Shown: positions 10,341 to 50,184 of the stretch, piece after piece
Position numbering within the stretch: position 1 is the first letter of the stretch
Layout: the number at the start of each line of letters is the position of its first letter
Virus record (IMG/VR): IMGVR_UViG_3300023099_000001
Span: 1-61,180 of that record
From: a virus
Direction: 5' to 3' (one strand)
Length of the DNA: 61,180 nt
Program-made: the position numbers and the translations under genes
The notes under the pieces: generated by a model
The model's database searches: none
What the model saw: only the letters and a program-made list of their open reading frames with translations
Told to the model about the DNA's origin: nothing

Positions 10341-10572
10341 AACTACGTGACCCCACCCCTGAGCCGTTAACCCAACCAAGAGTGCGGATAAGCTCAAGAC
10401 TCTCAAGCTCTTTATCAGGAATTGGCAAATCCATGTCAACGTCGAAACGGCTGCGTTTAGGCCGAGCTATCAAACTCTTGTGCATATCATTCACACGCTG
10501 CCTAGCTGCCACCCTAGCCGCTGTAGGAGCATTTCTGGGCGTAGAGTACTTAGAAGTGGGAGCCTTAGCCAC
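10333..10572 (-). CDS. hypothetical basic protein (79 aa)
   Basis: ORF track. Confidence 0.5.
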   Translation of the reverse strand: MAKAPTSKYSTPRNAPTAARVAARQRVNDMHKSLIARPKRSRFDVDMDLPIPDKELESLELIRTLGWVNGSGVGSRSYD

Positions 10573-10756
10573 GATTCGTAACCTCTACAATTTCATCCCA
10601 ATCGCTGCGAGAAAGCAGAACAATGTACGGATGAGAATTACTACGTTTTACAGAAACCTGCACAAGCTCGTCCTGAGCTACAACAGTAACAGAATTGTGC
10701 GGCTGCACGTTGTCTGTCTTTGTAACTCTTGTGAAGGTTGCCACAGGATTTCTCAT
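10565..10756 (-). CDS. hypothetical small protein (63 aa)
   Basis: ORF track; first gene after the 626-nt noncoding region. Confidence 0.5.
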   Translation of the reverse strand: MRNPVATFTRVTKTDNVQPHNSVTVVAQDELVQVSVKRSNSHPYIVLLSRSDWDEIVEVTNRG

Positions 10757-11382
10757 TTCTTGATTAGGTAATTACAAAAACTTGCCCGTAGGATCATACA
10801 TGGGGAGCTTTAGGGACTTTTAGCTCTCTGCCTCCACGTTCCATTCCAGTGAGTCAATTTCATATCTAGAATTTAGTTGTTACCTGACTGCCCTCATTCA
10901 CTACGCCATAGCTACGTGACTTATTGGGAATTTAAGATTGGCTAAATGCCCTCTGCGAGTTTTCTAGGGTTTCAAGTTTCATTTAGCCAATCAGCACGAC
11001 TGACACTTACTCTAGGCAATGTTCGGGCATTCCTGTTTCACTGCCAGCCGCGCAGACTGTCTAACTAATATATTTTCTATGTCGCTACACCAGTCCGGTC
11101 GTTTCTGGAATTACAAGCAATTCACCGGAGTTTCTAAAATCACATATATTCAACCCTATAGGCGGGTAACCTGTCGCTTTTACATGATAGCTCCTGATTA
11201 GGTATTTTTCATTTCTGTGCTACAAGAGAAACACTACGGGGAGTCAAGGTGTCTTGTCTAGTGTTTCTTTATAACAGATTGGTAACGGAAGATAACAGCC
11301 TGCAAACCAGCCTGAGAACTTGATTTCGAAAAATCAACTCTAGGCGCTTTACGTGGGACAGGTACAAAGCTGGGGAGTGTGA
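10757..11382 (-). other. 626-nt noncoding, hairpin-dense region between two leftward gene blocks (candidate structured RNA or regulatory region)
   Basis: No credible ORF on either strand. Perfect 13-bp (10936-10948/10980-10992) and 10-bp (11227-11236/11259-11268) inverted repeats, plus several shorter ones. Confidence 0.5.
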
Positions 11383-11613
11383 TCATTTCGAAATCACATC
11401 CGTGCCCAGCCCGTTACCCTGCACGTCCGCATCCCAAAAGCAATTATCGCTATCTTCAGTGGGGCACGGAGTTTCGGCGGGTATAGAAATAGTGGGCAAT
11501 TGCTGGGGAACAAACTGCATTTCCTGAATCTTGTTACCCACAATTACGATGAGTGCAACTGCAACCAACACAATCATGCAGTCCATAGCTGTTTTCAAAA
11601 ACTTGGGAATCAT
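11383..11613 (-). CDS. small membrane protein (76 aa, one TM helix)
   Basis: MIPKFLKTAMDCMIVLVAVALIVIVGNKI... is a hydrophobic N-terminus. ATGA overlap with the upstream ORF. Confidence 0.6.
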   Translation of the reverse strand: MIPKFLKTAMDCMIVLVAVALIVIVGNKIQEMQFVPQQLPTISIPAETPCPTEDSDNCFWDADVQGNGLGTDVISK

Positions 11614-11735
11614 GCTGGGTTTCCTACTCTCTTAGTGTTGTGTGAAATCTTTTCGAAGCTGGGTAAGTTGTCCATGTCCACGTCAAGGGCGGCAAGGCAC
11701 GACAGGGCACGCTGTAGCTTTCCTGAAATTCTCAT
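11610..11735 (-). CDS. small ORF (41 aa)
   Basis: Hand translation MRISGKLQRALSCLAALDVDMDNLPSFEKISHNTKRVGNPA; ATGA-coupled to 11613. Confidence 0.4.
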   Translation of the reverse strand: MRISGKLQRALSCLAALDVDMDNLPSFEKISHNTKRVGNPA

Positions 11736-11736
11736 T

Positions 11737-11880
11737 TCAGTAATCCCCTAAAAAGTAATCCCCTAAAATAGGAGCTAGGACCAACATAACCGCCGTGAGA
11801 ACACTATCCACAGTGGGATTATCCGCTTCCATAGCCTTATCAATGGCTTCGCCAAGGTCGTATTTAAGCTCTTCCAGCAT
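11737..11880 (-). CDS. small ORF (47 aa) downstream of hammerhead C
   Basis: Hand translation MLEELKYDLGEAIDKAMEADNPTVDSVLTAVMLVLAPILGDYFLGDY; the ATG lies 20 nt after the ribozyme motif. Confidence 0.45.
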   Translation of the reverse strand: MLEELKYDLGEAIDKAMEADNPTVDSVLTAVMLVLAPILGDYFLGDY

Positions 11881-11899
11881 TTTGATAACTCACTCTCTA

Positions 11900-11963
11900 A
11901 GTCTCATCAGTGTGCCTATCTGACACAGACCTAGCCTAATTGAATTTAGGCTAGGTTTCGACT
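11900..11963 (-). ncRNA. hammerhead ribozyme motif C (type II permutation)
   Basis: Minus-strand RNA: A GUC GAAA CCUAGCCUAA-auucaa-UUAGGCUAGG UC UGUGUC-agaua-GGCACA CUGAUGA GAC U. All invariant core nucleotides and a GUC cleavage triplet are present. Confidence 0.75.
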
Positions 11964-11976
11964 AGTTGGATAGAGA

Positions 11977-12816
11977 TTAGATGCTGTACGCTTCCCCACA
12001 GTTATCGCACGTCATCGTGGACTTCTCGTACATGTCACGAGGAATCCGGTAAATCGTGTCACAAGGGCACGAGACAGTGACCGTAGCGCTACCGTAAGCC
12101 TTACGCGGTTTCGGCGTGAACGGAATGTTCAAGTCAATTCCTGTAGTACCGCCGTAAGGGTTAGTGCTGGAAATGCGCCGGTAAATCGTGATCGCTGACA
12201 TAAGATTCTCGATTTTGTCGGCATACAGGGCGCGTGCGCTATCAGTGATACCCGGCGTAACGTGACCGATGTTTTGGTTCACGTTCGTGTTGGGGTCACG
12301 CTCCACAACACAACCGAAAGATGCTGCGAGGTTCGCAAAACGCTTGTTGTGGTAACGCCCTGAACGGGACGTGTCCTGAATGCCTTTAGCGTGCGCGTAA
12401 GCATGCGCAGCTTCATGCAACAGCGTGGAAACAGTTTTGATAACCTGTCCACCGTTTGTGTTCCACTCGCCCACCATAGACAGCGTGGAAAGCATCAACT
12501 CGTGGTGCGCAGCACCTTCGTACCGGTTCGGCGCGAAATGCCCATGAGCCCGTGTGTCGGCCTGCAACACAATGTTGACAGGCGGGGTACCGGGGTGTGT
12601 GTGCTGAATTTCACGCCACAACTCATTGATAGCGTTCAGAATGGGCAGAGTCGGCGTGTCATGGCGCAGAAACACTGCCAGCGCCTTACCGGGCAGCGTG
12701 TCGTGGTCCCGGTCGGCAGGGTAGCTCTTCTCAATGTTGCTAGCCCGCGTCAGGCTAACCACCCCGTGATCGACGGCGGCAACCAACGGGGCGTAAGTGA
12801 CTTTACGTGTTGACAT
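11977..12816 (-). CDS. SprT-like zinc metalloprotease with C-terminal zinc ribbon (279 aa; start at ATG 12816)
   Basis: LLHEAAHAYAHAKGIQDTSRSGRYHNKRFANLA contains an HExxH motif. C-terminal CPCD...CDNCG. The listed upstream start at 12849 lies inside the ribozyme motif. Confidence 0.7.
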   Translation of the reverse strand: MSTRKVTYAPLVAAVDHGVVSLTRASNIEKSYPADRDHDTLPGKALAVFLRHDTPTLPILNAINELWREIQHTHPGTPPVNIVLQADTRAHGHFAPNRYEGAAHHELMLSTLSMVGEWNTNGGQVIKTVSTLLHEAAHAYAHAKGIQDTSRSGRYHNKRFANLAASFGCVVERDPNTNVNQNIGHVTPGITDSARALYADKIENLMSAITIYRRISSTNPYGGTTGIDLNIPFTPKPRKAYGSATVTVSCPCDTIYRIPRDMYEKSTMTCDNCGEAYSI

Positions 12817-12832
12817 TCTATTCTCTCTTTCA

Positions 12833-12887
12833 AGACTCATCAGGTGCACTATCTGTGCACGACACGCTGTGGGAGCGTGTTTCGTCT
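12833..12887 (-). ncRNA. hammerhead ribozyme motif A (type II permutation)
   Basis: Minus-strand RNA: A GAC GAAA CACGCU-cccac-AGCGUG UC GUGCAC-agaua-GUGCAC CUGAUGA GUC U. Confidence 0.75.
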
Positions 12888-12894
12888 AGGGGGG

Positions 12895-13098
12895 TTACTC
12901 CCAGTCTGCTAGTGCTCCTGTTACCTCGAATTGTTCGAACGCTGCGCACAATGCGTCGCTACGGTCCAACCGAGGCCAGTTGCCTACTCGTGATTCGAAT
13001 ACCGAACCGTCGGTGTCAGCAATCGTTAGCACCGTATAACTGGGACGGTCCCCGAATGCCGGACCTTGCTTACCTGTAACAACTGTTATGCGTTCCAT
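12895..13098 (-). CDS. hypothetical protein (67 aa); first ORF of the ribozyme-punctuated operon
   Basis: ORF track; the ATG lies 21 nt after hammerhead B. Confidence 0.55.
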   Translation of the reverse strand: MERITVVTGKQGPAFGDRPSYTVLTIADTDGSVFESRVGNWPRLDRSDALCAAFEQFEVTGALADWE

Positions 13099-13119
13099 TG
13101 CTCTGCCTTTCGTGTAGTG

Positions 13120-13169
13120 GACTCATCAGCACGGGGGTTATCCGTGGACCCGTATACGCGGGTTTCGTC
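13120..13169 (-). ncRNA. hammerhead ribozyme motif B (type II permutation)
   Basis: Minus-strand RNA: GAC GAAA CCCG-cguaua-CGGG UC CACGG-auaaccc-CCGUG CUGAUGA GUC. Confidence 0.7.
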
Positions 13170-14164
13170 GGGTGGCTAGTACTTCGCGGCCCTAGCTAGG
13201 CGTTCCCTGAGACCCTGCCACCGTTTCGACTCCTACTATCCATGCGGCCCGGTGGGGCTCATTGATATCAGTATAGCCGCATATAGGCAGAATTGACCTG
13301 CAAATATCAACGGATTTATAACATTGCAGACCGTGCAAGATTGTGAGTACATAGCCCCCTCCACTAGTGGATATGCGCCACCCTGTCAATACCCCCGTAT
13401 ATACGCGCGCGGGCGAGGAAAACTCAGTCTTTCGAGCAGGGGGGTGTATGTACTGGTGTATGAGTGAGTCAATGGAACAGTACAGAGACCAACACATTGA
13501 TATATGAGTGTCAATCAATAGCTAGGTGCGCTGACATATGAGAGTCAATGAGTCGTTGACATATACATGTAGCTAGAACATATGTACGAGACAGAACAGT
13601 CTGTCGCACTATTAGCACTCGCAGAGCAAGAGTGCCAAAAGGGGGGTTTAGTGGGGTAAAGAGAACCCCGGAATAGAGCGGCTGAAAGGGGCTGATTCGA
13701 TTCTACGGGGCGAACGGGGATGAGTTAGGGGTAGCGGATGGGTAAGGGGGGTCAAGGGCTTAGACGGGCGCACAGGGCCGCACGCTATGAACTAGCTGTA
13801 TGAACACTGATAGGTGTGAGTGTAGAACACATGTACTAAACAGGGTGAGGATGTGTCAAGTTAAGAGTATGTACTGGTGTATGTACTAGCGTGACATATA
13901 AATGTATACATGAAAGGGATTAGAGTTGAATGAACGCTGATAGATAGCTGTGAGCGGGCTATGAGAAGAGCAAGAGAAACAAATGAGAATAAATCATGTT
14001 CAATCGATGAAAGAAGATAATGAGAGAATGTCACGGCTGGGAGAGCGTGGTTGGGGGTGGTGTATGTATTTTTGTATTAAAAATTTCTAGTGTAGTTTCT
14101 CTTTTCCAAAAAATAATCGGAGAAAAAATTGCTATAGGACCCGTTCTAGTTGTAGACTGTCTAC
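13170..14164. promoter_or_regulatory. about 1-kb noncoding divergent control region (repeats, G-tract cluster); candidate promoters, ori or pac
   Basis: Lies between leftward and rightward gene blocks. Only an implausible Cys/His-rich ORF is present. Direct repeats and 11 G-runs. Confidence 0.5.
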
Positions 14165-14476
14165 ATGAAAGATAAAACGCTTGAAGAGGTAGTATTAGAT
14201 TCTGTACAATCTACGTTGAGTACAGCAACACCTGAACAAATTACTGATTTAATCCGGGCACCATACGAGGATTTGAAGGGCAATAAAATGGACGAGTTTG
14301 ATTACATGCAGGACGATGCGCTAATGAAATTTACAAAACAGTTTGAGCCAGAGCTTAGCGACCATTACACCGGTAATATCGCGGATTACACTTTCTTTAT
14401 TCAGGAAGAGTTTCTGCCCCGTTTCGAGCGCGCTGTGTGGGAGCTAACGCTGCAATCCAGACCTAGCCGCAGGTAG
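14165..14476 (+). CDS. hypothetical protein (103 aa)
   Basis: ORF track; first rightward gene. TTGCTA-18 nt-TAGACT lies 6 nt upstream of the ATG (possible leaderless start). Confidence 0.6.
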   Translation: MKDKTLEEVVLDSVQSTLSTATPEQITDLIRAPYEDLKGNKMDEFDYMQDDALMKFTKQFEPELSDHYTGNIADYTFFIQEEFLPRFERAVWELTLQSRPSRR

Positions 14477-14492
14477 TGCTAAAATAGGTTGT

Positions 14493-14870
14493 ATGGCGAA
14501 TATGGTGTTGGTTGACTATAAGACTTTAGAGAACCCCCAAAAACGGGAGGTCGTTAAAGCCTTCCTTATCGAGCACTTAATTAGCCATCCCGATACCCTG
14601 ATTACTGTGCTGAATGCTGAATGGGACGCTCAACCTGTTATGACTAAAACTAGTCTGAAAGGTTGGGCGTTTCCTTTTGACGGGTTGGCGGTTAACCCTT
14701 TGACGTTGGAGGTACCTCCGATTACGTTTAAAACAATGTTTGCTGCGAGTGTGTCTGAAAAAGCTGAGCACAAGGTTGTGCTGGTTATTGATGACGAAAT
14801 GGAAGCGCTTACCATGTGGAAAAATTTTGGTGTAGTATTTACGTTAAGTCCTGAAGTTAAAGCGGCATAG
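14493..14870 (+). CDS. hypothetical protein (125 aa)
   Basis: ORF track. Confidence 0.6.
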   Translation: MANMVLVDYKTLENPQKREVVKAFLIEHLISHPDTLITVLNAEWDAQPVMTKTSLKGWAFPFDGLAVNPLTLEVPPITFKTMFAASVSEKAEHKVVLVIDDEMEALTMWKNFGVVFTLSPEVKAA

Positions 14871-38385: not shown

Positions 38386-38456
38386 ATCGTGTTGGTGTAA
38401 TGGCAGCACAAGAAACTCCAAATCTCTTGGCGGGAGTTCGATTCTCTCACACTTTG
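38386..38456 (+). tRNA. tRNA-Trp(CCA)-like, acceptor stem defective at pairs 2-71 and 3-70
   Basis: D arm GTGT/GCAC, anticodon loop CTCCAAA, T arm GGGAG-TTCGATT-CTCTC, CCA encoded. Acceptor ATCGTGT/ACACTTT gives only 5 of 7 pairs. Confidence 0.45.
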
Positions 38457-38479
38457 CCAGCTTGAATAACTAAATACTT

Positions 38480-38552
38480 GGGCCTATGACTAGATAGGGA
38501 TGTCCCTGCTTTGCAAGCAGTGTGTATGGGAGTTCGAATCTCCTTAGGTCCA
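38480..38552 (+). tRNA. tRNA-Ala(TGC)
   Basis: Acceptor GGGCCTA/TAGGTCC with G3:U70; anticodon loop TTTGCAA; T loop TTCGAAT. Confidence 0.7.
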
Positions 38553-38557
38553 CGCAA

Positions 38558-38629
38558 CGCGGTGTAGTCTAACGGTAGGACAACAGTTTCATACGCTGTA
38601 CAGTGCGAGTTCGATTCTCGTCACCGCAA
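38558..38629 (+). tRNA. tRNA-Met(CAT) with C1-A72 mismatch (initiator-like acceptor), CCA encoded
   Basis: CGCGGTG/CACCGCA; anticodon loop TTCATAC; T arm GCGAG-TTCGATT-CTCGT; A73-CCA. Confidence 0.7.
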
Positions 38630-38654
38630 CCACTTGACAACTTAATATCAACAA

Positions 38655-38726
38655 CCGATTATACGCAAGAGGTATGCGGCACGCTTTGGGAGCATGAAGT
38701 CGAAGGTTCGAATCCTTCTAATCGGA
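38655..38726 (+). tRNA. tRNA-Pro(TGG)
   Basis: CCGATTA/TAATCGG; loop TTTGGGA (G37); T arm GAAGG-TTCGAAT-CCTTC. Confidence 0.75.
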
Positions 38727-38728
38727 CT

Positions 38729-38801
38729 GCGGCTATGACAGAATGATAATTGTCACTGATTGTGGATCAGTTGTACGTGGGTTTGATCCCCACTAGTCGC
38801 C
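38729..38801 (+). tRNA. tRNA-His(GTG), CCA encoded
   Basis: GCGGCTA/TAGTCGC; C73; anticodon stem ACTGA/TCAGT; loop TTGTGGA. Confidence 0.75.
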
Positions 38802-38896
38802 CCACTTCCCGGTAACGGGCAGCGCAACAATCGGCGCGATAAAAGACATGAGGTTAGCGGCCTCAGGTGAAGTCCTCACTGACGAATGGACAATTT

Positions 38897-38968
38897 GGGA
38901 CTATAGCTCAGAGGAAGAGCATTCGCCTGTCGAGCGAAAGGTCGCGGTATCGTAATCCGTTAGTCTCG
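38897..38968 (+). tRNA. tRNA-Asp(GTC), non-canonical T arm (U53-U61), CCA encoded
   Basis: GGGACTA/TAGTCTC; stem TTCGC/GCGAA; loop CTGTCGA; T arm GCGGT-ATCGTAA-TCCGT. Confidence 0.65.
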
Positions 38969-38972
38969 CCAA

Positions 38973-39045
38973 GTCGCATTAGGATAGCGGTTAATCCACT
39001 TGATTCTCAGTCAAGATACCGAGGGTTCGAATCCCTCATGCGATA
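38973..39045 (+). tRNA. tRNA-Glu(CTC)
   Basis: GTCGCAT/ATGCGAT; stem CTTGA/TCAAG; loop TTCTCAG; T arm GAGGG-TTCGAAT-CCCTC. Confidence 0.7.
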
Positions 39046-39046
39046 C

Positions 39047-39120
39047 GCTCCGTTGGTCTAGCGGTTAGGATGCCGGGCTTTCACCCCGTGCGAACGTCGG
39101 TTCGAATCCGACACGGAGTA
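39047..39120 (+). tRNA. tRNA-Glu(TTC)
   Basis: GCTCCGT/ACGGAGT; loop CTTTCAC; T arm GTCGG-TTCGAAT-CCGAC. Confidence 0.7.
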
Positions 39121-39122
39121 CG

Positions 39123-39150
39123 ATAGCACAGTACACCCTGTGCTATTTTT
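39123..39150 (+). terminator. rho-independent terminator inside the tRNA array
   Basis: ATAGCACAG-tacacc-CTGTGCTAT followed by TTTT. Confidence 0.7.
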
Positions 39151-39165
39151 AGTCAGTGGAGTATA

Positions 39166-39249
39166 ATGGATAACAGTACAGAGAACATCGACGGATTTGC
39201 TTGCCCAATTGATCCTATGGAAGCCTTGCAATGCGAGTCTTGCCAGTGA
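39166..39249 (+). CDS. micro-ORF (27 aa, Cys-containing)
   Basis: GGAG-tata-ATG; hand translation MDNSTENIDGFACPIDPMEALQCESCQ. Confidence 0.3.
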   Translation: MDNSTENIDGFACPIDPMEALQCESCQ

Positions 39250-39255
39250 TATAAT
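39247..39255 (+). promoter_or_regulatory. extended -10 element (TGaTATAAT) 8 nt before tRNA-Tyr
   Basis: The predicted start site would fall at or next to the mature tRNA 5' end. Confidence 0.4.
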
Positions 39256-39263
39256 TAAATAAC

Positions 39264-39345
39264 GGCGCGTTACTCAAGCGGTTAACGAGGTCTGACTGTA
39301 AATCAGATGTGTAATGCTACGGGAGTTCGAATCTCTCACGCGCCA
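39264..39345 (+). tRNA. tRNA-Tyr(GTA), class II
   Basis: GGCGCGT/ACGCGCC; stem TCTGA/TCAGA; loop CTGTAAA; 13-nt variable arm. Confidence 0.8.
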
Positions 39346-39405
39346 CGCAGTAGCTGAAGTGTTGCAACGGGACTAACTGAATAACTCCCTATTGCTGCTG
39401 CACTT

Positions 39406-39478
39406 GCCCCTTTAGCTCAAACGGTAGAGCATTGGTCTGAAACGCCGAGGGTTGTTGGTTCGAATCCAATGGGGGGCA
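39406..39478 (+). tRNA. tRNA-Phe(GAA)
   Basis: GCCCCTT/GGGGGGC; loop CTGAAAC; T arm GTTGG-TTCGAAT-CCAAT. Confidence 0.75.
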
Positions 39479-39483
39479 CGCAT

Positions 39484-39556
39484 GCCTGTGTACCCCAATG
39501 GCAGAGGGACAGCACTTAAAATGCTTTCAGTAAGGGTTCGAGTCCCTTGACAGGTA
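39484..39556 (+). tRNA. class-I-shaped tRNA with anticodon TAA (UUA-Leu codon)
   Basis: GCCTGTG/GACAGGT; loop CTTAAAA; only a 5-nt variable region; T arm AAGGG-TTCGAGT-CCCTT. Confidence 0.55.
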
Positions 39557-39574
39557 CGTTACAATTAAACATAT

Positions 39575-39655
39575 GGCTCATTGGTGGAATGGTATACACG
39601 CTAGTCTTAGGAACTAGTGCCGAAAGGTATAAGAGTTCGAATCTCTTATGGGCTA
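39575..39655 (+). tRNA. tRNA-Leu(TAG), class II
   Basis: GGCTCAT/ATGGGCT; stem CTAGT/ACTAG; loop CTTAGGA; 13-nt variable arm. Confidence 0.75.
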
Positions 39656-39669
39656 CTCGTAGGAAAATA

Positions 39670-39740
39670 AAAGCTATAGTGTAGTGGAAGCGCGCCGGGC
39701 CGTTAACCCGGAAGTGGGAGTTCGATTCTCTCTAGCAAAA
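39670..39740 (+). tRNA. tRNA-Asn(GTT)-like, acceptor pairs 1-3 all A-A, C33
   Basis: AAAGCTA/TAGCAAA; stem CCGGG/CCCGG; loop CCGTTAA; canonical D and T arms. Possibly a pseudogene. Confidence 0.4.
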
Positions 39741-39817
39741 AGTGGTGTATACTGCACACGTAAGCGCTCCCTGTTTGGTACGGGGGAAGCGGGACGAGGA
39801 CTACCGCATAGAAACGG

Positions 39818-39846
39818 TAGACACTACGATTCATTTAGTGTATAAT
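39818..39846 (+). promoter_or_regulatory. promoter (TAGACA-17 nt-TGTATAAT; TAGTGTATAAT copy)
   Basis: -35 at 39818-39823, 17-nt spacer, extended -10 at 39839-39846, 6 nt before ATG 39853. Confidence 0.55.
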
Positions 39847-39852
39847 AGGAGA

Positions 39853-39921
39853 ATGATGATTAAGCAGCAAACGAAATGCTCGGGCATAGGTAATACTGTC
39901 CGCGCCCTGTTTGCTGCCTAA
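39853..39921 (+). CDS. micro-ORF (22 aa), possibly leaderless
   Basis: MMIKQQTKCSGIGNTVRALFAA; followed by a terminator. Confidence 0.3.
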   Translation: MMIKQQTKCSGIGNTVRALFAA

Positions 39922-39942
39922 AAGTTCTTAGAACTACTTGAC

Positions 39943-39973
39943 AGCCTATAGGGAAACCTGTAGGCTATTTTTA
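39943..39973 (+). terminator. rho-independent terminator
   Basis: AGCCTATAGG-gaaa-CCTGTAGGCT followed by ATTTTTAT. Confidence 0.7.
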
Positions 39974-39991
39974 TAACTACACACAGCAAAT

Positions 39992-40073
39992 GGAGACACG
40001 CATGGGAGAGCTTATGCGTCTTGAAAACGTTGATGACCGCAAGGTTGTGGGGGTTCGAGTCCCTCTGTCTCCG
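39992..40073 (+). tRNA. tRNA-Ser(TGA), class II, atypical D arm
   Basis: GGAGACA/TGTCTCC; loop CTTGAAA; variable arm GACC-gcaa-GGTT; T arm GGGGG-TTCGAGT-CCCTC. Confidence 0.6.
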
Positions 40074-40123
40074 CAATAGGTTAGGAAGCCCTGAGTTCCA
40101 GAACAGCACCGACACCTAGATTT

Positions 40124-40206
40124 GGAATCATGGCAGAGCGGTAATGCAGCACCCTGCTAAGGTGTACAGCCTCACGGTTGCGAAGGTTCGATTCCTTCTG
40201 GTTCCG
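40124..40206 (+). tRNA. tRNA-Ser(GCT), class II
   Basis: GGAATCA/TGGTTCC; stem GCACC/GGTGT; loop CTGCTAA; long variable arm. Confidence 0.75.
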
Positions 40207-40229
40207 CTTGACAACTAAATAATAACTAA

Positions 40230-40301
40230 CCCCCTGTAGCTCAGAGGCAGAGCACCGGACTTTTAATCCGAGGGCCGAGATTTCAAAATTCTCTGGGGGG
40301 A
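40230..40301 (+). tRNA. tRNA-Lys(TTT), non-canonical T arm (U53-U61)
   Basis: CCCCCTG/TGGGGGG; loop CTTTTAA; T arm GAGAT-TTCAAAA-TTCTC. Confidence 0.6.
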
Positions 40302-40395
40302 CAAACTCGACACACGGAGCGCTCTGTGCTAGAGTTAGGTACGTTGGACCGGACTGGTGCAATTCAAGCTAAGGTTTCCGCAACGTACCGATCTT

Positions 40396-40466
40396 GCCTT
40401 ATTGATGTAGAAGTAACATACTAGTCTTCCAAACTAGGTTCGCGGTGGCAGAATCCGCATAAGGCT
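40396..40466 (+). tRNA. tRNA-Gly(TCC), non-canonical T arm
   Basis: GCCTTAT/ATAAGGC; stem CTAGT/ACTAG; loop CTTCCAA; T arm GCGGT-GGCAGAA-TCCGC. Confidence 0.6.
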
Positions 40467-40485
40467 CTTGATAACTAAATAACAT

Positions 40486-40558
40486 GCCGAATTAGCTCAT
40501 CAGGTAGAGCAGGTATCTTGTAAATATCAGGTGGTCAGTTCGAGTCTGACATTCGGCC
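40486..40558 (+). tRNA. tRNA-Thr(TGT)
   Basis: GCCGAAT/ATTCGGC; loop CTTGTAA; T arm GTCAG-TTCGAGT-CTGAC. Confidence 0.8.
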
Positions 40559-40560
40559 CC

Positions 40561-40628
40561 GGTTCACGTTCTGGGAACAAGCATCCTTTACACGGAAGCT
40601 CCGCAGAGTCCGATTCTCTGGTGAACTA
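40561..40628 (+). tRNA. tRNA-Val(TAC), short D arm
   Basis: GGTTCAC/GTGAACT; loop TTTACAC; T arm CAGAG-TCCGATT-CTCTG. Confidence 0.55.
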
Positions 40629-40778
40629 CGCAATACGTCTTAGCATGGTGTAAGCCTGAAGCTAAGAACTATACAGGAACTTACATTCCGTGGTATAGTC
40701 GAGTCAAAGGATACTCGTAATCATCCGGCGCTGATAGTTTATGGTACAACGCATGAAGCATAATGAACCGTACAACAT

Positions 40779-40850
40779 TGGAGTGTGGCGCAGCGGCAGC
40801 GCAGGAAACTGTTAATTTCTTGGTCGTAGGTTCGAATCCTACCATTCCAG
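40779..40850 (+). tRNA. tRNA-Asn(GTT)
   Basis: TGGAGTG/CATTCCA; D arm GCGC/GCGC; loop CTGTTAA; T arm GTAGG-TTCGAAT-CCTAC. Confidence 0.75.
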
Positions 40851-40870
40851 CTTTACAATTAAATATCAAT

Positions 40871-40942
40871 GCCTTATTAGCTCAGCGGAAGAGCTTGCGC
40901 CTACGGAGCGTAGAGTCGGGAGTTCGAATCTCTCATAGGGCA
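40871..40942 (+). tRNA. tRNA-Arg(ACG)
   Basis: GCCTTAT/ATAGGGC; loop CTACGGA; T arm GGGAG-TTCGAAT-CTCTC. Confidence 0.8.
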
Positions 40943-41023
40943 CGAAAGGCTGTGTGGTAGGTATCTCAGACGCTCCCGATAACGGAGACAGTAGATCACA
41001 GTGAAGAAACACCCTACCGACAA

Positions 41024-41095
41024 TGCCCGCTGGTGTAACCGGCAACACGACTGGCTCTGAATCAGTTATTTCTAGTTCGAATCTAGGGTGGGCAG
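41024..41095 (+). tRNA. tRNA-Gln(CTG)
   Basis: TGCCCGC/GTGGGCA (U1-A72); loop CTCTGAA; T arm TCTAG-TTCGAAT-CTAGG. Confidence 0.75.
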
Positions 41096-41105
41096 CGCTT
41101 GACAT

Positions 41106-41177
41106 ACCCCGTTGGTGTAGCGGCAGCACGCGAGCCTTTGGAACTCGTAGGGCGTGGTTCGAATCCACGGTGGGGTG
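41106..41177 (+). tRNA. tRNA-Gln(TTG)
   Basis: ACCCCGT/GTGGGGT; loop CTTTGGA (31-39 C-A mismatch); T arm CGTGG-TTCGAAT-CCACG. Confidence 0.65.
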
Positions 41178-41197
41178 CTCTGATAATTTAATAACAC

Positions 41198-41269
41198 GCC
41201 CCTCTAACTCAGAGGCAGAGTATTCCCCTCTTAAGGGAAGAGTCGAGATTTCGAAATTCTCGGGGGGCA
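41198..41269 (+). tRNA. tRNA-Lys(CTT), non-canonical T arm (U53-U61)
   Basis: GCCCCTC/GGGGGGC; stem TTCCC/GGGAA; loop CTCTTAA; T arm GAGAT-TTCGAAA-TTCTC. Confidence 0.65.
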
Positions 41270-41270
41270 C

Positions 41271-41344
41271 TGTCCTAGGGCCGAACGGTTTGACGGCATG
41301 AAGCTTATAACTTCACGGACAGGGTTCAATTCCCTGTGGGACTA
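41271..41344 (+). tRNA. tRNA-Ile(TAT)
   Basis: TGTCCTA/TGGGACT (1-72 U-U); D stem GCCG/CGGC; stem TGAAG/CTTCA; loop CTTATAA. Confidence 0.55.
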
Positions 41345-41345
41345 C

Positions 41346-41417
41346 GGTAGTGTGCGTGAGTGGCTAGCGCGCTGATTGCAAACCAGTTGTACGCCTGTTC
41401 GAATCAGGTCACTACCT
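41346..41417 (+). tRNA. tRNA-Cys(GCA)
   Basis: GGTAGTG/CACTACC; U73; loop TTGCAAA; T arm GCCTG-TTCGAAT-CAGGT. Confidence 0.75.
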
Positions 41418-41436
41418 CTTGATAATTTAATAGCAA

Positions 41437-41508
41437 GCCTCTATAGCTCAATGGAAGAGCAACGGTTTTCTAGGCCATAGGTTGCGGGTTCGAATCCTGC
41501 TAGGGGTA
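41437..41508 (+). tRNA. tRNA-Arg(TCT)
   Basis: GCCTCTA/TAGGGGT; loop TTTCTAG; T arm GCGGG-TTCGAAT-CCTGC. Confidence 0.7.
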
Positions 41509-41566
41509 CTGGGTGCTACCTATGGCGGTAGTTAAATGTCGGCATCGTCCCTACAGCCCTTATTAA

Positions 41567-41640
41567 AGCCGTTTAGCTCAGTAGGTTAGAGCGCTGTGCT
41601 GATAACACAGAGGTCCGCAGTTCAAATCTGCGAATGGCTA
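41567..41640 (+). tRNA. tRNA-Ile(GAT)
   Basis: AGCCGTT/AATGGCT; stem CTGTG/CACAG; loop CTGATAA; T arm CGCAG-TTCAAAT-CTGCG. Confidence 0.8.
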
Positions 41641-44458: not shown

Positions 44459-44727
44459 CTTTCTTTTGCCGCCTTTAGTTTAGCTGTGAGCACTGGCTGA
44501 GCACCTACCTTTGTGGAAAAGTCTCCCTGAAAACCGGCTTCACATTCTAGGCTGTGTAGTCTGACATCATCTACAAGTACGATATCTGCATCAGCAATTC
44601 GCCACACAGTGCCAGAGCTTATTACGTTAACTTTGTTGCCTTCTGGATCGCTAAAACTTTCGGACCAAAAAACAAGATCACCAACCCTAAACACTGTAGG
44701 TACTCGGCTCATAGCAAATCTCCCCAA
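44443..44727 (-). CDS. hypothetical protein (94 aa)
   Basis: ORF track. Confidence 0.55.
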   Translation of the reverse strand: MGRFAMSRVPTVFRVGDLVFWSESFSDPEGNKVNVISSGTVWRIADADIVLVDDVRLHSLECEAGFQGDFSTKVGAQPVLTAKLKAAKESWYQK

Positions 44728-45482
44728 CTACGTCCGTACGAAAATTCGCTCAGGTACGGCACTTTGTCACCGAACACGGCTTCTCCGGTCAGTCTAAACT
44801 CCGATTGTATACGCTTACCTATGATATCCGCAAGTGTCCATGCCGCAGGATCAGCACCCGGAATTTCCACGAGGATAGCGTCATGCACAAGGGCCACGAT
44901 GTGCGCGCCTTGCTCTTTAATCCACGGGTGAACTCTTATAGCGGTTACCAAACAAATGTCAGAGCTAATCGCCTGCGGCATAAAAGACAACGCTTCGCGC
45001 TCGATGTTACCCTTGTTTTTGTGTGTAATGATTTCGCTTTGAAAACGCCGACCAAATGGTGTAAGTAGGTATTGATCACGGAGAGTTTCGTCTGTTGCAG
45101 CGCGCTTGACATTCACACGCCATTCAGCAAATTTCTCTGCTGTTGTCAAGTAGTTGTCAATAATAGCTTGCGCCTCGCGGACAGTGATGCCAAGCTCTAC
45201 TGCAATTGCTTTAGCTTCGCGGCCAAACGCTAGTCCGTACTGCACAGTCTTTACTTTGACGCGGAATTCTTTCTTAGCCGTCTTGTCAATGTTGTGCACG
45301 TCAACATTAGGGAAACAAATGGGCATCATGTAATTGTCGAAGAAATCCCCGGCACCTTCGCGTAAGGCGTTCAGCATCCAAGGGTCGTCAGATAGTGCCG
45401 CCATTGTTCGTAGTTCCGCTTGGCTGAGGTCTACTTGTAAGAGCGTCACGTCTTGCCTGCTTTCTTTCCTTGTCTGGATCAC
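44709..45482 (-). CDS. DNA polymerase I (family A), C-terminal fragment (motifs A, B, C)
   Basis: GTG start preceded by a stop. VDLSQAELRTMAALS (motif A), KTVQYGLAFG (motif B), VALVHDAILVE (motif C). Confidence 0.85.
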   Translation of the reverse strand: MIQTRKESRQDVTLLQVDLSQAELRTMAALSDDPWMLNALREGAGDFFDNYMMPICFPNVDVHNIDKTAKKEFRVKVKTVQYGLAFGREAKAIAVELGITVREAQAIIDNYLTTAEKFAEWRVNVKRAATDETLRDQYLLTPFGRRFQSEIITHKNKGNIEREALSFMPQAISSDICLVTAIRVHPWIKEQGAHIVALVHDAILVEIPGADPAAWTLADIIGKRIQSEFRLTGEAVFGDKVPYLSEFSYGRSWGDLL

Positions 45483-45744
45483 GAGTTATATAAGTGTTTG
45501 CAAGGTCTTGCGCGTGGTGAGGGAATGTATTTGTAGTATTCCAGCGCCCACCGGGAGTATAGTTCTGTATATAACGAATAGTTCTTTGCGCACTATAACC
45601 TACCAATCTCCACTCTTCTAGCAGTATACCCAGCACTTTAATTTTGTGCTTTTGGCGTTTGATTTTAGCGCGCAGGCGTAAGATTTCTTCTGCCATTTGA
45701 AGTTCAAGCTCGGTAGGATTACGAGGTATCAAGTCATCCACCAT
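45388..45744 (-). CDS. hypothetical protein within the polymerase split (118 aa from ATG 45744)
   Basis: ATG overlaps the stop of 45734-46093 (ATGGTGGATGA). Coiled-coil-like; the 3' end overlaps the polymerase C-fragment. Confidence 0.45.
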   Translation of the reverse strand: MVDDLIPRNPTELELQMAEEILRLRAKIKRQKHKIKVLGILLEEWRLVGYSAQRTIRYIQNYTPGGRWNTTNTFPHHAQDLANTYITRDPDKERKQARRDALTSRPQPSGTTNNGGTI

Positions 45745-46093
45745 CAGGTAATACAACTCCCGTACCGTTTTCGTGACGGTTACCGTCACTGTCATACCAG
45801 ATAATAGTGTTGTGGTCTGTCGGACCCATGTCTGGGTAAATTGTCTTCCAAAACTCTGCGTTCACTGCGGGATCATTGCTGTGTGAGCAGGGAAATCTGT
45901 GGTTGACTGCGCCGGGACAGCGTTTGTTGCCGCACTCAGGGCATAGTGTCATCCATGACCCGCCTTGCATAAACGCTTCGAAAGGGTCAGCAGGCCGCAC
46001 CCACGGCACTTCAGGATCACGCCACGGTGGGCCGCATTTACTGCATGTACACATGTCGAACGGCGTTACTTTGTTTGGATTAATGTCAGCCAT
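45734..46093 (-). CDS. Cys-rich (zinc-finger-like) protein within the polymerase split (119 aa)
   Basis: CTCSKCGPPW...LCPECGNKRCPGAVNHRFPCSH. The ATG lies 3 nt after, and in frame with, the TAG of the polymerase N-fragment. Confidence 0.55.
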   Translation of the reverse strand: MADINPNKVTPFDMCTCSKCGPPWRDPEVPWVRPADPFEAFMQGGSWMTLCPECGNKRCPGAVNHRFPCSHSNDPAVNAEFWKTIYPDMGPTDHNTIIWYDSDGNRHENGTGVVLPDGG

Positions 46094-46096
46094 AAT

Positions 46097-47452
46097 CTAT
46101 CCTATGTAAATCGAGCGAAATTTTGCGTCGCGGGGAATGTTTTGTATGTTCGGGCCTGAGCTTGACAACCTGCCTGTACTCGTACCGTGTACAAGAAATG
46201 TTGTATGCACTCTGCCTTTGCGGGCTTTGTTCAGTGCGCCTGTCACATAGGTAGAGAGTGCTTTACTTACCCCTCTGTACTCTAACAGTAAATCAATGAA
46301 TACAACAACAGGGTGAGTAGACGAAAAGTTGGCCCTATACTTTGTCAAATGTTTTTCATCTGTACTGTCCGTGTAAGCGGTACCAGAGAATGAAGTCAGA
46401 ACAGTTTGGACTTGCTGCCATGAACCGGGATTAAATAGCTTGTTTGTTTTGAACACAACGCCGCTAGTAAGCGTCTGAAGTTTAGAAAGTAGGTCGTCTA
46501 CTTCAAATGCCATATCGTTTTCAAGATTCTGCGTATAAGGCACATCAATAGCGAAACCGAACTGCTCCACATCCAGCAGGAAATCTGCGGCCTTCATTTC
46601 CAGTAGGAAAGCTTTCTGCGCTTCATCATCAGCGAAGATAAGCGGCTCAAGATACTTCCAAAGCTCATACGTCCAGTACACATCCCACATGTTGTACTCA
46701 TTCAGGATGTGTGCGGGCACGTTCTCGTAGTAGGCACCGCCTACCGTCCATTTAGACAGGTCAGCTTCCCACTCGGGGGCACCCAAATACATTCTGCACA
46801 GTGGCTTGAGCTTGTGAAGTCCTGCGGCTTGGTTGAGTACGTGGTGCGCAAGCATGGTGTCGAAAAAGTTTGGCATTCTAACGCCAGTGCGTGCTTCTAT
46901 TACACGGATATCGAACTTACCATTATGCCAAATAGGGTACTTGATTTTACGTAGCCACTGTTTAACAGCGGCCATTTCTAGGGGCGTTCTGAAATCCCAG
47001 CACGCCCACATACCCTCTTGATAGAAGCTGATCGAGAGAATGTCAACTTGTTCAGGCGTGTGCTTTTTATCAAGGTCACCAGCAGTCTCAATGTCTACTG
47101 CAATTGGCTTGTCAAGGTCAAACCTGTCTAAGCCACCCTGAATAACTCTGGTAGGGTGAACCTTTTGGGGTAGATAAAACTGGTTCAGGGCGGCTTTCAG
47201 GACGCTTACAGCATTGGCTTTTGTACATATTTGCGCAAGGCTGTAAGTGTGGACAAGCTGGCTGCCTGTTTGTATGGCATTTAAGGCAATTCTACCCATA
47301 GGATCAACTATAGTACCAAAGATTAAAACTCTGGGTTCGTGAATACCACTAAACGAGGCGTAGTTTTTGGGGTCTAGGTTATGAATTCTAAAGGTGTTCG
47401 GCGGGTATTGGTCGATGACACCTTTGATAATATCAAAAGCATCCTGAGTCAT
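46097..47452 (-). CDS. DNA polymerase I (family A), N-terminal fragment (3'-5' exonuclease, thumb, motif 2a; start at ATG 47452)
   Basis: IAVDIETAG (Exo I); HNGKFDIRV; TGRLSSSGPNIQNIPRDAKFRSIYIG then TAG. Confidence 0.85.
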   Translation of the reverse strand: MTQDAFDIIKGVIDQYPPNTFRIHNLDPKNYASFSGIHEPRVLIFGTIVDPMGRIALNAIQTGSQLVHTYSLAQICTKANAVSVLKAALNQFYLPQKVHPTRVIQGGLDRFDLDKPIAVDIETAGDLDKKHTPEQVDILSISFYQEGMWACWDFRTPLEMAAVKQWLRKIKYPIWHNGKFDIRVIEARTGVRMPNFFDTMLAHHVLNQAAGLHKLKPLCRMYLGAPEWEADLSKWTVGGAYYENVPAHILNEYNMWDVYWTYELWKYLEPLIFADDEAQKAFLLEMKAADFLLDVEQFGFAIDVPYTQNLENDMAFEVDDLLSKLQTLTSGVVFKTNKLFNPGSWQQVQTVLTSFSGTAYTDSTDEKHLTKYRANFSSTHPVVVFIDLLLEYRGVSKALSTYVTGALNKARKGRVHTTFLVHGTSTGRLSSSGPNIQNIPRDAKFRSIYIG

Positions 47453-47459
47453 GGGTTGC

Positions 47460-47879
47460 TCAGAGTAAATCGGTACCTGTATAACCACTGAGACTCCTAG
47501 AAATTTGTGAAAGCGTAAGACCTGTAAACTTAGCAACAATTCTACGTGAGTTACCGTCAAGAATTGCGCCATGCAGCAGGTGAACATTGATAGGTCGCCC
47601 GTTGTTTAAGTTTAGTCGTAGCTGCAACAAGGTGTCAAGGCTCTTCGGGTTAAACTTTCCGGTACCTTTGCGTGGCATTTCAATGCCAAAACCTCTGATG
47701 GTACTGGCAGACCAACCTGACAGTTGCACCAGATGACCTGTGCTGAACAGTCCCCACTCGTTCAGCGACACTAACGCTTCGTAACGTTGCTGCTTTGACA
47801 TAAATTTGCTGCGTTCGTAAAGGTATTTTGCCTCTGTCATTGCCTTTACATAATCAGCATTACTCAGTTGTACCTGCAA
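47460..47879 (-). CDS. putative DNA-binding protein (139 aa)
   Basis: ORF track; HTH-like segments. Confidence 0.5.
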   Translation of the reverse strand: MQVQLSNADYVKAMTEAKYLYERSKFMSKQQRYEALVSLNEWGLFSTGHLVQLSGWSASTIRGFGIEMPRKGTGKFNPKSLDTLLQLRLNLNNGRPINVHLLHGAILDGNSRRIVAKFTGLTLSQISRSLSGYTGTDLL

Positions 47880-50110: not shown

Positions 50111-50184
50111 TCTCTCACCTGAGATTCGAACTCAGATCGCACACCGTTTGAAGGTGCCGCCTCTACCATTTGGGCTAGCGAGAG
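50111..50184 (-). tRNA. class-I-shaped tRNA with anticodon CAA (UUG-Leu codon), isolated on the minus strand
   Basis: Reverse complement: CTCTCGC TA GCCC-AAATGGTA-GAGGC GCACC-TTCAAAC-GGTGT GCGAT CTGAG-TTCGAAT-CTCAG GTGAGAG A. Confidence 0.6.

Follow-up and report, generated by a model that had tools for sequence, protein, structure and literature searches.

Copy C, a 64-base element on the minus strand of an uncultured tailed phage, is most probably a functional type II hammerhead ribozyme that would cut the transcript of an early operon into single-gene mRNAs; judging from its sequence, its viral family and its gene context, we place the probability of this reading at about 80%. The element lies between two early phage genes in the window, by which we mean the whole 61-kb stretch of DNA that was analysed, and it is the last of three such motifs, copies B, A and C, within 1.3 kb of the same strand.

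Results

Copy C contains a complete type II hammerhead motif

To describe the element we read the minus strand directly from 11963 to 11900, which gives A GUC GAAA (CCUAGCCUAA auucaa UUAGGCUAGG) UC (UGUGUC agaua GGCACA) CUGAUGA GAC U, where the brackets enclose two hairpins. This agrees exactly with the sequence, coordinates and cleavage position given for copy C in an earlier note on this DNA. Its parts are as follows.

11900..11963, minus strand: copy C, complete type II hammerhead motif from 4-bp stem II to 4-bp stem II (sequence, descriptor match, covariance model R2, minimum-free-energy and centroid fold)
11960..11963, minus strand: stem II 5' strand AGUC (11.4-11.1), pairs with GACU at 11900-11903
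11957..11959, minus strand: core G12 A13 A14, invariant in 84 of 84 aligned family members
11929..11956, minus strand: stem III hairpin, A15.1 (11956) to U16.1 (11929), 11 bp, loop AUUCAA (11945-11940)
11927..11928, minus strand: predicted cleavage site, C17 (11928) / U1.1 (11927), from the hammerhead consensus in which the cut is 3' of H17
11911..11927, minus strand: stem I hairpin UGUGUC-AGAUA-GGCACA, 6 bp and a 5-nt loop
11904..11910, minus strand: core C3 U4 G5 A6 U7 G8 A9 (CUGAUGA)
11900..11903, minus strand: stem II 3' strand GACU (10.1-10.4)

By the criteria of the Methods of PMC3088659, all of the invariant hammerhead core bases are present, namely CUGAUGA, GAAA, A15.1-U16.1 and C17, and the pairs adjacent to the core (G10.1-C11.1, U1.1-A2.1 and A15.1-U16.1) are intact. 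The stems of 4, 11 and 6 bp contain no mismatch, with a single G-U wobble in stem I. Stem III, whose 11 bp include the A15.1-U16.1 pair, is long for the family yet within its range of 4-12 bp. The order of elements is 11.x-GAAA-III-H17-I-CUGAUGA-10.x, such that loops cap both stem I and stem III and stem II is open, which is the type II permutation.

The motif is neither a chance match nor explained by a DNA-level element

We evaluated how often such a motif arises by chance using a descriptor in which the core and U16.1-H17 are obligatory, each of two hairpins has 4 bp or more and stem II has 3 bp or more. This descriptor matched the window exactly three times (13120-13169, 12833-12887 and 11900-11963), each time on the minus strand and between genes, whereas 300 dinucleotide-preserving shuffles gave a mean of 0.02 matches per window, with a single match in 6 of the 300. 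The hammerhead secondary structure is both the minimum-free-energy and the centroid fold of the 68-nt copy C RNA at -25 kcal/mol (z = -4.67), none of 200 shuffles was equally stable, and the hammerhead junction is also part of the minimum-free-energy fold within 108 nt of context.

The earlier note had suggested a covariance-model search. We built such a model, R2, from 81 IMG/VR viral hammerheads only, with no window sequence among them. R2 matched copy C over its full model length with 55.8 bits (E 1.3e-13) and scored copies A and B at 49.9 and 35.4 bits, respectively; with filters off it found no further match in the window at E <= 1. Together with family-wide covariation and gene context, this independent model backs the hammerhead reading, the type II topology, the predicted cleavage position and the 10.2-11.2 double change that had been proposed.

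Standard Rfam models behaved differently. At gathering score, Rfam reported 26 tRNAs and nothing else in the window, and in E-value mode no Hammerhead_II match was returned for the 501 bases around copy C even at E <= 10. Copy B reached 18.6 bits against Rfam Hammerhead_II (RF02276), under the gathering score of 37 bits, a score of which copy C likewise falls short. The Rfam consensus describes the pseudoknotted form, in which loop I is long and the 3' tail conserved, and in six multi-copy viral loci that we tested all of the short-loop members were missed at gathering score. The RF02276 miss reflects the threshold of one model and is not a property of the ribozyme class.

The lack of an Rfam match could also be taken to mean that copy C is a chance match, or an operator or terminator palindrome that resembles a hammerhead at the level of DNA, and a dimeric protein could indeed bind the 10-bp palindrome of stem III. 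We regard this explanation as effectively refuted. The excess of three motifs over the shuffled expectation and the R2 E-value of about 1e-13 both speak against it, the hairpin is not followed by a U-tract, and a terminator scan shows nothing at the site. Moreover, the stems of family members are wholly different in sequence yet remain paired, which is the signature of an RNA rather than of a DNA element.

Copies B, A and C flank single genes of an early phage operon

The functional reading of copy C depends in part on its neighbours, which are listed here in the order of minus-strand transcription.

13120..13169, minus strand: hammerhead copy B, stem II GAC/GUC, 7-nt loop I, predicted cleavage 13147/13146 (descriptor; R2 35.4 bits, E 9e-8)
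12895..13098, minus strand: 67-aa ORF (orf67), between copies B and A
12833..12887, minus strand: hammerhead copy A, stem II AGAC/GUCU, loop I AGAUA, predicted cleavage 12861/12860 (descriptor; R2 49.9 bits)
11977..12816, minus strand: SprT-like gene, 279 aa, with copies A and C on either side (Pfam SprT-like, E 4.8e-4, below cut-off)
11737..11880, minus strand: 47-aa ORF (orf47), start codon 19 nt past copy C

Copy B sits in the 5' leader of the first ORF, and copy A ends 16 nt before the ATG of the SprT-like gene. Copy C begins 13 nt past the SprT-like stop codon (TAA, 11979-11977) and ends 19 nt before the ATG at 11880-11878, in keeping with the placement described earlier. The distance to the next start codon is 21, 16 and 19 nt for the three window copies. 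Copies A and C carry the same stem I loop, AGAUA, an identity that the earlier note had correctly recorded. The three copies flank orf67 and the SprT-like gene in short intergenic gaps, which is the arrangement of the phage operon hammerhead clusters in Figure 3 of PMC3088659. The window itself is the genome of an uncultured tailed phage: it encodes a terminase (42% identical to Arthrobacter phage terminases), a portal, a tape measure and DNA polymerase A, and has a structural module, a cluster of 25 tRNA genes and a replication module with DNA polymerase A.

These data allow us to propose a processing model for the window, which extends the proposal of Perreault et al. (PMC3088659). An early polycistronic transcript would begin in the ORF-poor region at 13200-14160. 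Following transcription, the copy C RNA would fold into a three-way junction and cut 3' of C17, between 11928 and 11927. Cuts by copies B, A and C would divide the transcript into an orf67 message, a SprT-like message and a third comprising orf47 and what follows. The upstream product of the copy C cut, the SprT-like mRNA, would carry a terminal 2',3'-cyclic phosphate one nucleotide past stem III, a very stable hairpin of 11 bp. The downstream product would begin with the stem I hairpin and a 5'-OH, ahead of the ribosome-binding site and about 19 nt before the next start codon. Given hairpins at both product ends, the stability and the translation of neighbouring genes should become uncoupled.

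There is precedent for several parts of this model. A 2011 study had already described phage and prophage operons in which type II hammerheads flank single genes, and had proposed processing into single-gene mRNAs (PMC3088659), and three type II hammerheads near phage-like genes of Desulfovibrio vulgaris cleave in vivo as judged by cyPhyRNA-seq (PMC8782182). The biological role of bacterial and phage hammerheads in general is still unproven (PMC6765202).

As exactly one gene is bracketed by copies A and C, we also considered whether paired hammerheads excise the RNA of the flanked gene, which hammerhead reversal or an RtcB-type ligase would then join into a circle or a spliced RNA. RNA ends carrying a 5'-OH and a 2',3'-cyclic phosphate are the chemistry on which RtcB acts, and the predicted products fit it. 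The same possibility was raised by Perreault et al., who nevertheless sought spliced or circular products and detected none (PMC3088659). In the window, no RtcB or RNA-ligase domain was found in the ten larger replication-module ORFs that we scanned, and the stereotyped distance at which the next ribosome-binding site and start codon follow fits linear mRNAs instead. We therefore hold paired excision to be very improbable compared with the processing into linear single-gene mRNAs described above.

Copy C belongs to a large viral family of compact type II hammerheads

To place copy C among its relatives we scanned IMG/VR with core-anchored patterns, which returned at least 120 loci in each of two scans and 35 loci in another. 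Among the matches listed, the 1.43 Mb of DNA that we retrieved gave 167 unique type II hammerheads with the descriptor, up to seven per locus, and a later IMG/VR scan raised the maximum among its listed matches to eight copies. We further evaluated the family with a core-only pattern, AGUCGAAA-N28-58-CUGAUGAGACU, which presupposes no stems. Both hairpins and U16.1-H17 were in register in 114 of the 124 unique viral matches listed (92%), in contrast to 0.27% of matches once the inner segment had been shuffled.

Alignment A1 brings together 84 members whose stem I hairpin measures 17 nt. Paired cells make up 99.8% of its stems, a figure that is partly circular through member selection, and 13 of the 15 pairs have changed on both sides. 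Compensatory cells numbered 354 versus 95 in shuffles. In stem II the four pairs are 100% paired, and in three of them both partners have changed. This compact class is recognised by its stem II of 4 bp together with a stem I hairpin of 17 nt; copy C has both, in addition to its R2 match.

The placement of the family resembles that in the window: its members begin a median of 6 nt past a stop codon, and the next start codon follows their end after a median of 22 nt (10th to 90th percentile, 11-41 nt). Their stem III loops are mostly UUCG, UACG or GNRA tetraloops, as would fit a protective terminal hairpin.

The hammerheads of L017, L041 and L399-L404, which are unrelated viral and marine metagenome sequences, carry exactly the 17-nt stem I hairpin found in copy C. 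Their stem III sequences and neighbouring genes are different. An exact search of metagenomes for stem I plus core yielded six genuine hammerheads, all with a different stem III and different neighbours.

The stem II difference of copy C reads as ordinary family covariation

The pair at 10.2-11.2 is U-A in copies A and B (GUC/GAC) and A-U in copy C (GAC/GUC), which the earlier note interpreted as a compensatory swap. The double change is real, and all four Watson-Crick pairs occur at this position across the family. In an unbiased viral sample, where stem II was left free beyond the fixed G10.1-C11.1 pair, the counts at 10.2-11.2 among the matches listed were A-U 43, G-C 33, C-G 23 and U-A 18, and stem II was exactly 4 bp long in 107 of the 118 listed members. 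On these alignments the difference in copy C is most simply read as ordinary covariation that supports stem II, and not as evidence of a local compensatory event. The covariation support for copy C is at the level of the family, since no ortholog exists for this copy.

Hammerheads are patchy in the related phage lineage

We looked for relatives at several levels. A megablast of 10500-14500 against phage genomes gave no match, and among phages the SprT-like protein has its sole match in Actinoplanes phage phiAsp2 (26% identity). A protein-based search of viral contigs for relatives of the SprT-like locus confirmed none. SprT-like homologs that are 50-61% identical occur in a group of related phage contigs, from which we compared seven distinct loci.

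Two of these loci have a type II hammerhead immediately upstream of the SprT-like gene, at the position of copy A. In L005 Rfam Hammerhead_II scores it at 39.8 bits, over the gathering score of 37; in L006 it has CUGAAGA, loop AGAUA and stem II AGUC/GACU. Downstream of the SprT-like gene none of the seven related loci has a hammerhead, and a strong plain hairpin is found instead. It follows that copy C is without an ortholog and, given the plain hairpin in relatives, that it is dispensable in the lineage. Hammerheads are patchy in these SprT-like phages.

The plain hairpins lie 10-90 nt past the SprT-like stop codon in L002, L005, L006, L007, L010 and L011, matching the site of copy C. Several of them have GGCTAGG...CCTAGCC-like arms, and stem III of copy C contains the same words with the order of the arms reversed. 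We considered CCTAGCC/GGCTAGG as a motif common to the relatives and dropped it: there is no excess of CTAG in the window, with 193 occurrences for 237 expected, and the motif does not cluster.

Loop I and the stem II flanks occur in two complementary classes

In most type II members, although not all, loop I pairs with the 3' tail in a pseudoknot of 4 bp or more, which gives high-speed activity (PMC3088659), and this pseudoknot is visible in many of the viral members that we found. Copy C, with its 5-nt loop I, has no such pseudoknot to its 3' tail, and might be slow at physiological Mg2+.

The earlier note had put forward, as speculative, a pseudoknot between the loop and sequence just 5' of the motif. 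The complementarity is there, with CUAUC (11973-11969) able to pair with GAUAG (11920-11916), but it is not conserved and gains no comparative support: a 5'-flank complement of at least 5 nt is present in 4 of 30 class members versus 7.4% of shuffled flanks. On the other side, 8 of 30 class members have a 3'-tail complement of at least 4 nt to loop I, versus 21% of shuffled tails. Two further candidates were rejected. A 2-bp mini-pseudoknot of the 3' tail with loop I showed no covariation by eye on the alignment, and an extended stem II, UCUCUA:UAGAGA, is part of the copy C minimum-free-energy fold but is absent from copy A and from family members, and was set aside as a general feature.

A different constraint emerged from the bases that flank stem II. 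Where a 4-bp stem II is flanked by U on both sides, as in copy C, loop I reads A-NNN-A, in 30 of 30 members from targeted scans and in 2 of 2 from the unbiased sample. In the common class the 5' flank is A (the 3' base being A, G or C) and loop I reads U-NNN-G/A/U, in 54 of 54 and 104 of 104 members. Across alignments A1 and A2 and the unbiased sample, there is one exception to this two-state pattern in about 190 sequences. The copy C class is the minor one, with 2 of the 107 members that have a 4-bp stem II in the unbiased sample, its 30 examples coming from the targeted scans.

Type I and type III hammerheads have a loop-loop contact with a conserved reverse Hoogsteen A-U pair (PMC6155905). 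In copy C an A and a U stand in corresponding positions, one at the end of stem II and the other as the first base in loop I, and could pair alike; the difference is that in the copy C class the two bases are the other way round. As of a 2017 review, there was no crystal structure of any type II hammerhead (PMC6155905). We tentatively suggest that copy C may contain an undescribed variant of the hammerhead tertiary contact, in which a single invertible A-U pair between helices replaces the type II pseudoknot, although we consider this rather less likely than its absence. Given that only two flank/loop states are seen, two old clades could yield the same pattern without any contact.

The absence of the loop I pseudoknot also bears on whether copy C is an efficient ribozyme at all. 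It could be a genuine hammerhead by descent that is now catalytically weak and minimal, acting mainly through its stable hairpins to stabilise the transcript or to induce pausing. Minimal hammerheads without loop contacts are around 100-fold slower, or worse, at low Mg2+ (PMC6155905), and related phages have only a strong hairpin at the position of copy C. Against this, loop I and the stem II flanks are tightly constrained in two complementary classes, which argues for a selected tertiary contact, and every catalytic base is kept in hundreds of members, something that would not last without cleavage. On balance we think a weak, structural element unlikely, and favour a copy C that would cleave its transcript.

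Discussion

It is already established that type II hammerheads exist, are linked to phages and cluster around single small genes (PMC3088659, PMC6155905, PMC6765202), and the copies described here fit well into this background. In common with the type II hammerheads of Perreault et al. 2011 (PMC3088659; RF02276), copy C has the same catalytic core and the same permutation with a short, open stem II, lies in the kind of intergenic region of phage and prophage operons where several copies often surround single genes, and invites the same proposed processing into single-gene mRNAs. It differs from their consensus, in which a long loop I forms a pseudoknot with the 3' tail right past stem II: copy C has the 5-nt loop AGAUA, a stem II of strictly 4 bp and no pseudoknot.

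The closest comparison is with the majority compact class of IMG/VR, characterised by flank A and loop I U-NNN-R. Copy C is like it in the 4-bp stem II and the 17-nt stem I hairpin. A tetraloop-capped stem III and a site between a stop codon and the next ribosome-binding site are listed as further features in common. The flanks of copy C, in contrast, are U/U in place of A/R, and its loop I is A-NNN-A in place of U-NNN-G. By description, the three type II hammerheads of D. vulgaris (PMC8782182) resemble copy C in topology and in their location near hypothetical and phage-like genes, with the difference that those were predicted by existing models.

These data add three well-supported ribozymes to an uncultured phage. 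They also indicate that a compact and very abundant viral class, with at least 120 loci per large scan, escapes the current Rfam type II model. The stereotyped placement of the class members leads to a concrete model, in which a polycistronic early RNA would be cut into hairpin-capped single-gene messages, for a role question described as open in PMC6765202. Finally, the two complementary flank/loop classes point to a tertiary contact in type II hammerheads that is open to mutational testing.

Additional observations

The tRNA genes of the window number 26, of which 25 lie in one 3.3-kb cluster on the plus strand (38386-41640), after the structural module. The remaining one (50111-50184, minus strand) is on the opposite strand, within the replication module.

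DNA polymerase A is encoded in two ORFs on the minus strand (44712-47587). The ORF at 46100-47587 comprises the exonuclease domain and polymerase profile positions 11-137, while that at 44712-45482 covers profile positions 150-381. Approximately 600 nt separate the two halves, and a 135-aa ORF (45388-45795) is found there. The split may be the result of an intron or of a homing-endonuclease insertion.

The region at 13200-14160 comprises about 950 nt poor in ORFs, between the divergent early (minus-strand) and plus-strand units. On its minus strand it contains the repeat 'acaccagtacatac', at approximately 13880-13867 and 13458-13445, and several TTGACA motifs. This is likely the promoter and regulatory region of the hammerhead-containing transcript. 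A second 'GAGUCGAAAC' occurs 60 nt upstream of copy B (13222-13231, minus strand), with a GGUGG...CCACC stem after it. Lacking both U16.1-H17 and CUGAUGA, it is not a hammerhead and may be a remnant or chance.

Beyond viral DNA, a search of 185,579 cellular genomes with the class 2a pattern returned at least 120 loci, none with a real hammerhead among the matches listed, an outcome that is consistent with chance and says nothing on hosts. The class 2a strings were not found in the supplementary text files of PMC3088659.

In four marine metagenome contigs (L400-L403), the same hammerhead 3' half and the same ribosome-binding stretch (ucaaggagaacugaaAUG) occur together with different genes on both sides, so that hammerhead and ribosome-binding site appear to travel as a module. 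In another viral genome, IMGVR_UViG_3300010381_000016 (L013), a hammerhead of the copy C class lies 176 nt upstream of a Twister-P5 ribozyme (elements at 840-894 and 1070-1124). The latter scores 44.8 bits, over its gathering score of 37.6, making this locus another case of distinct self-cleaving classes in one phage neighbourhood.
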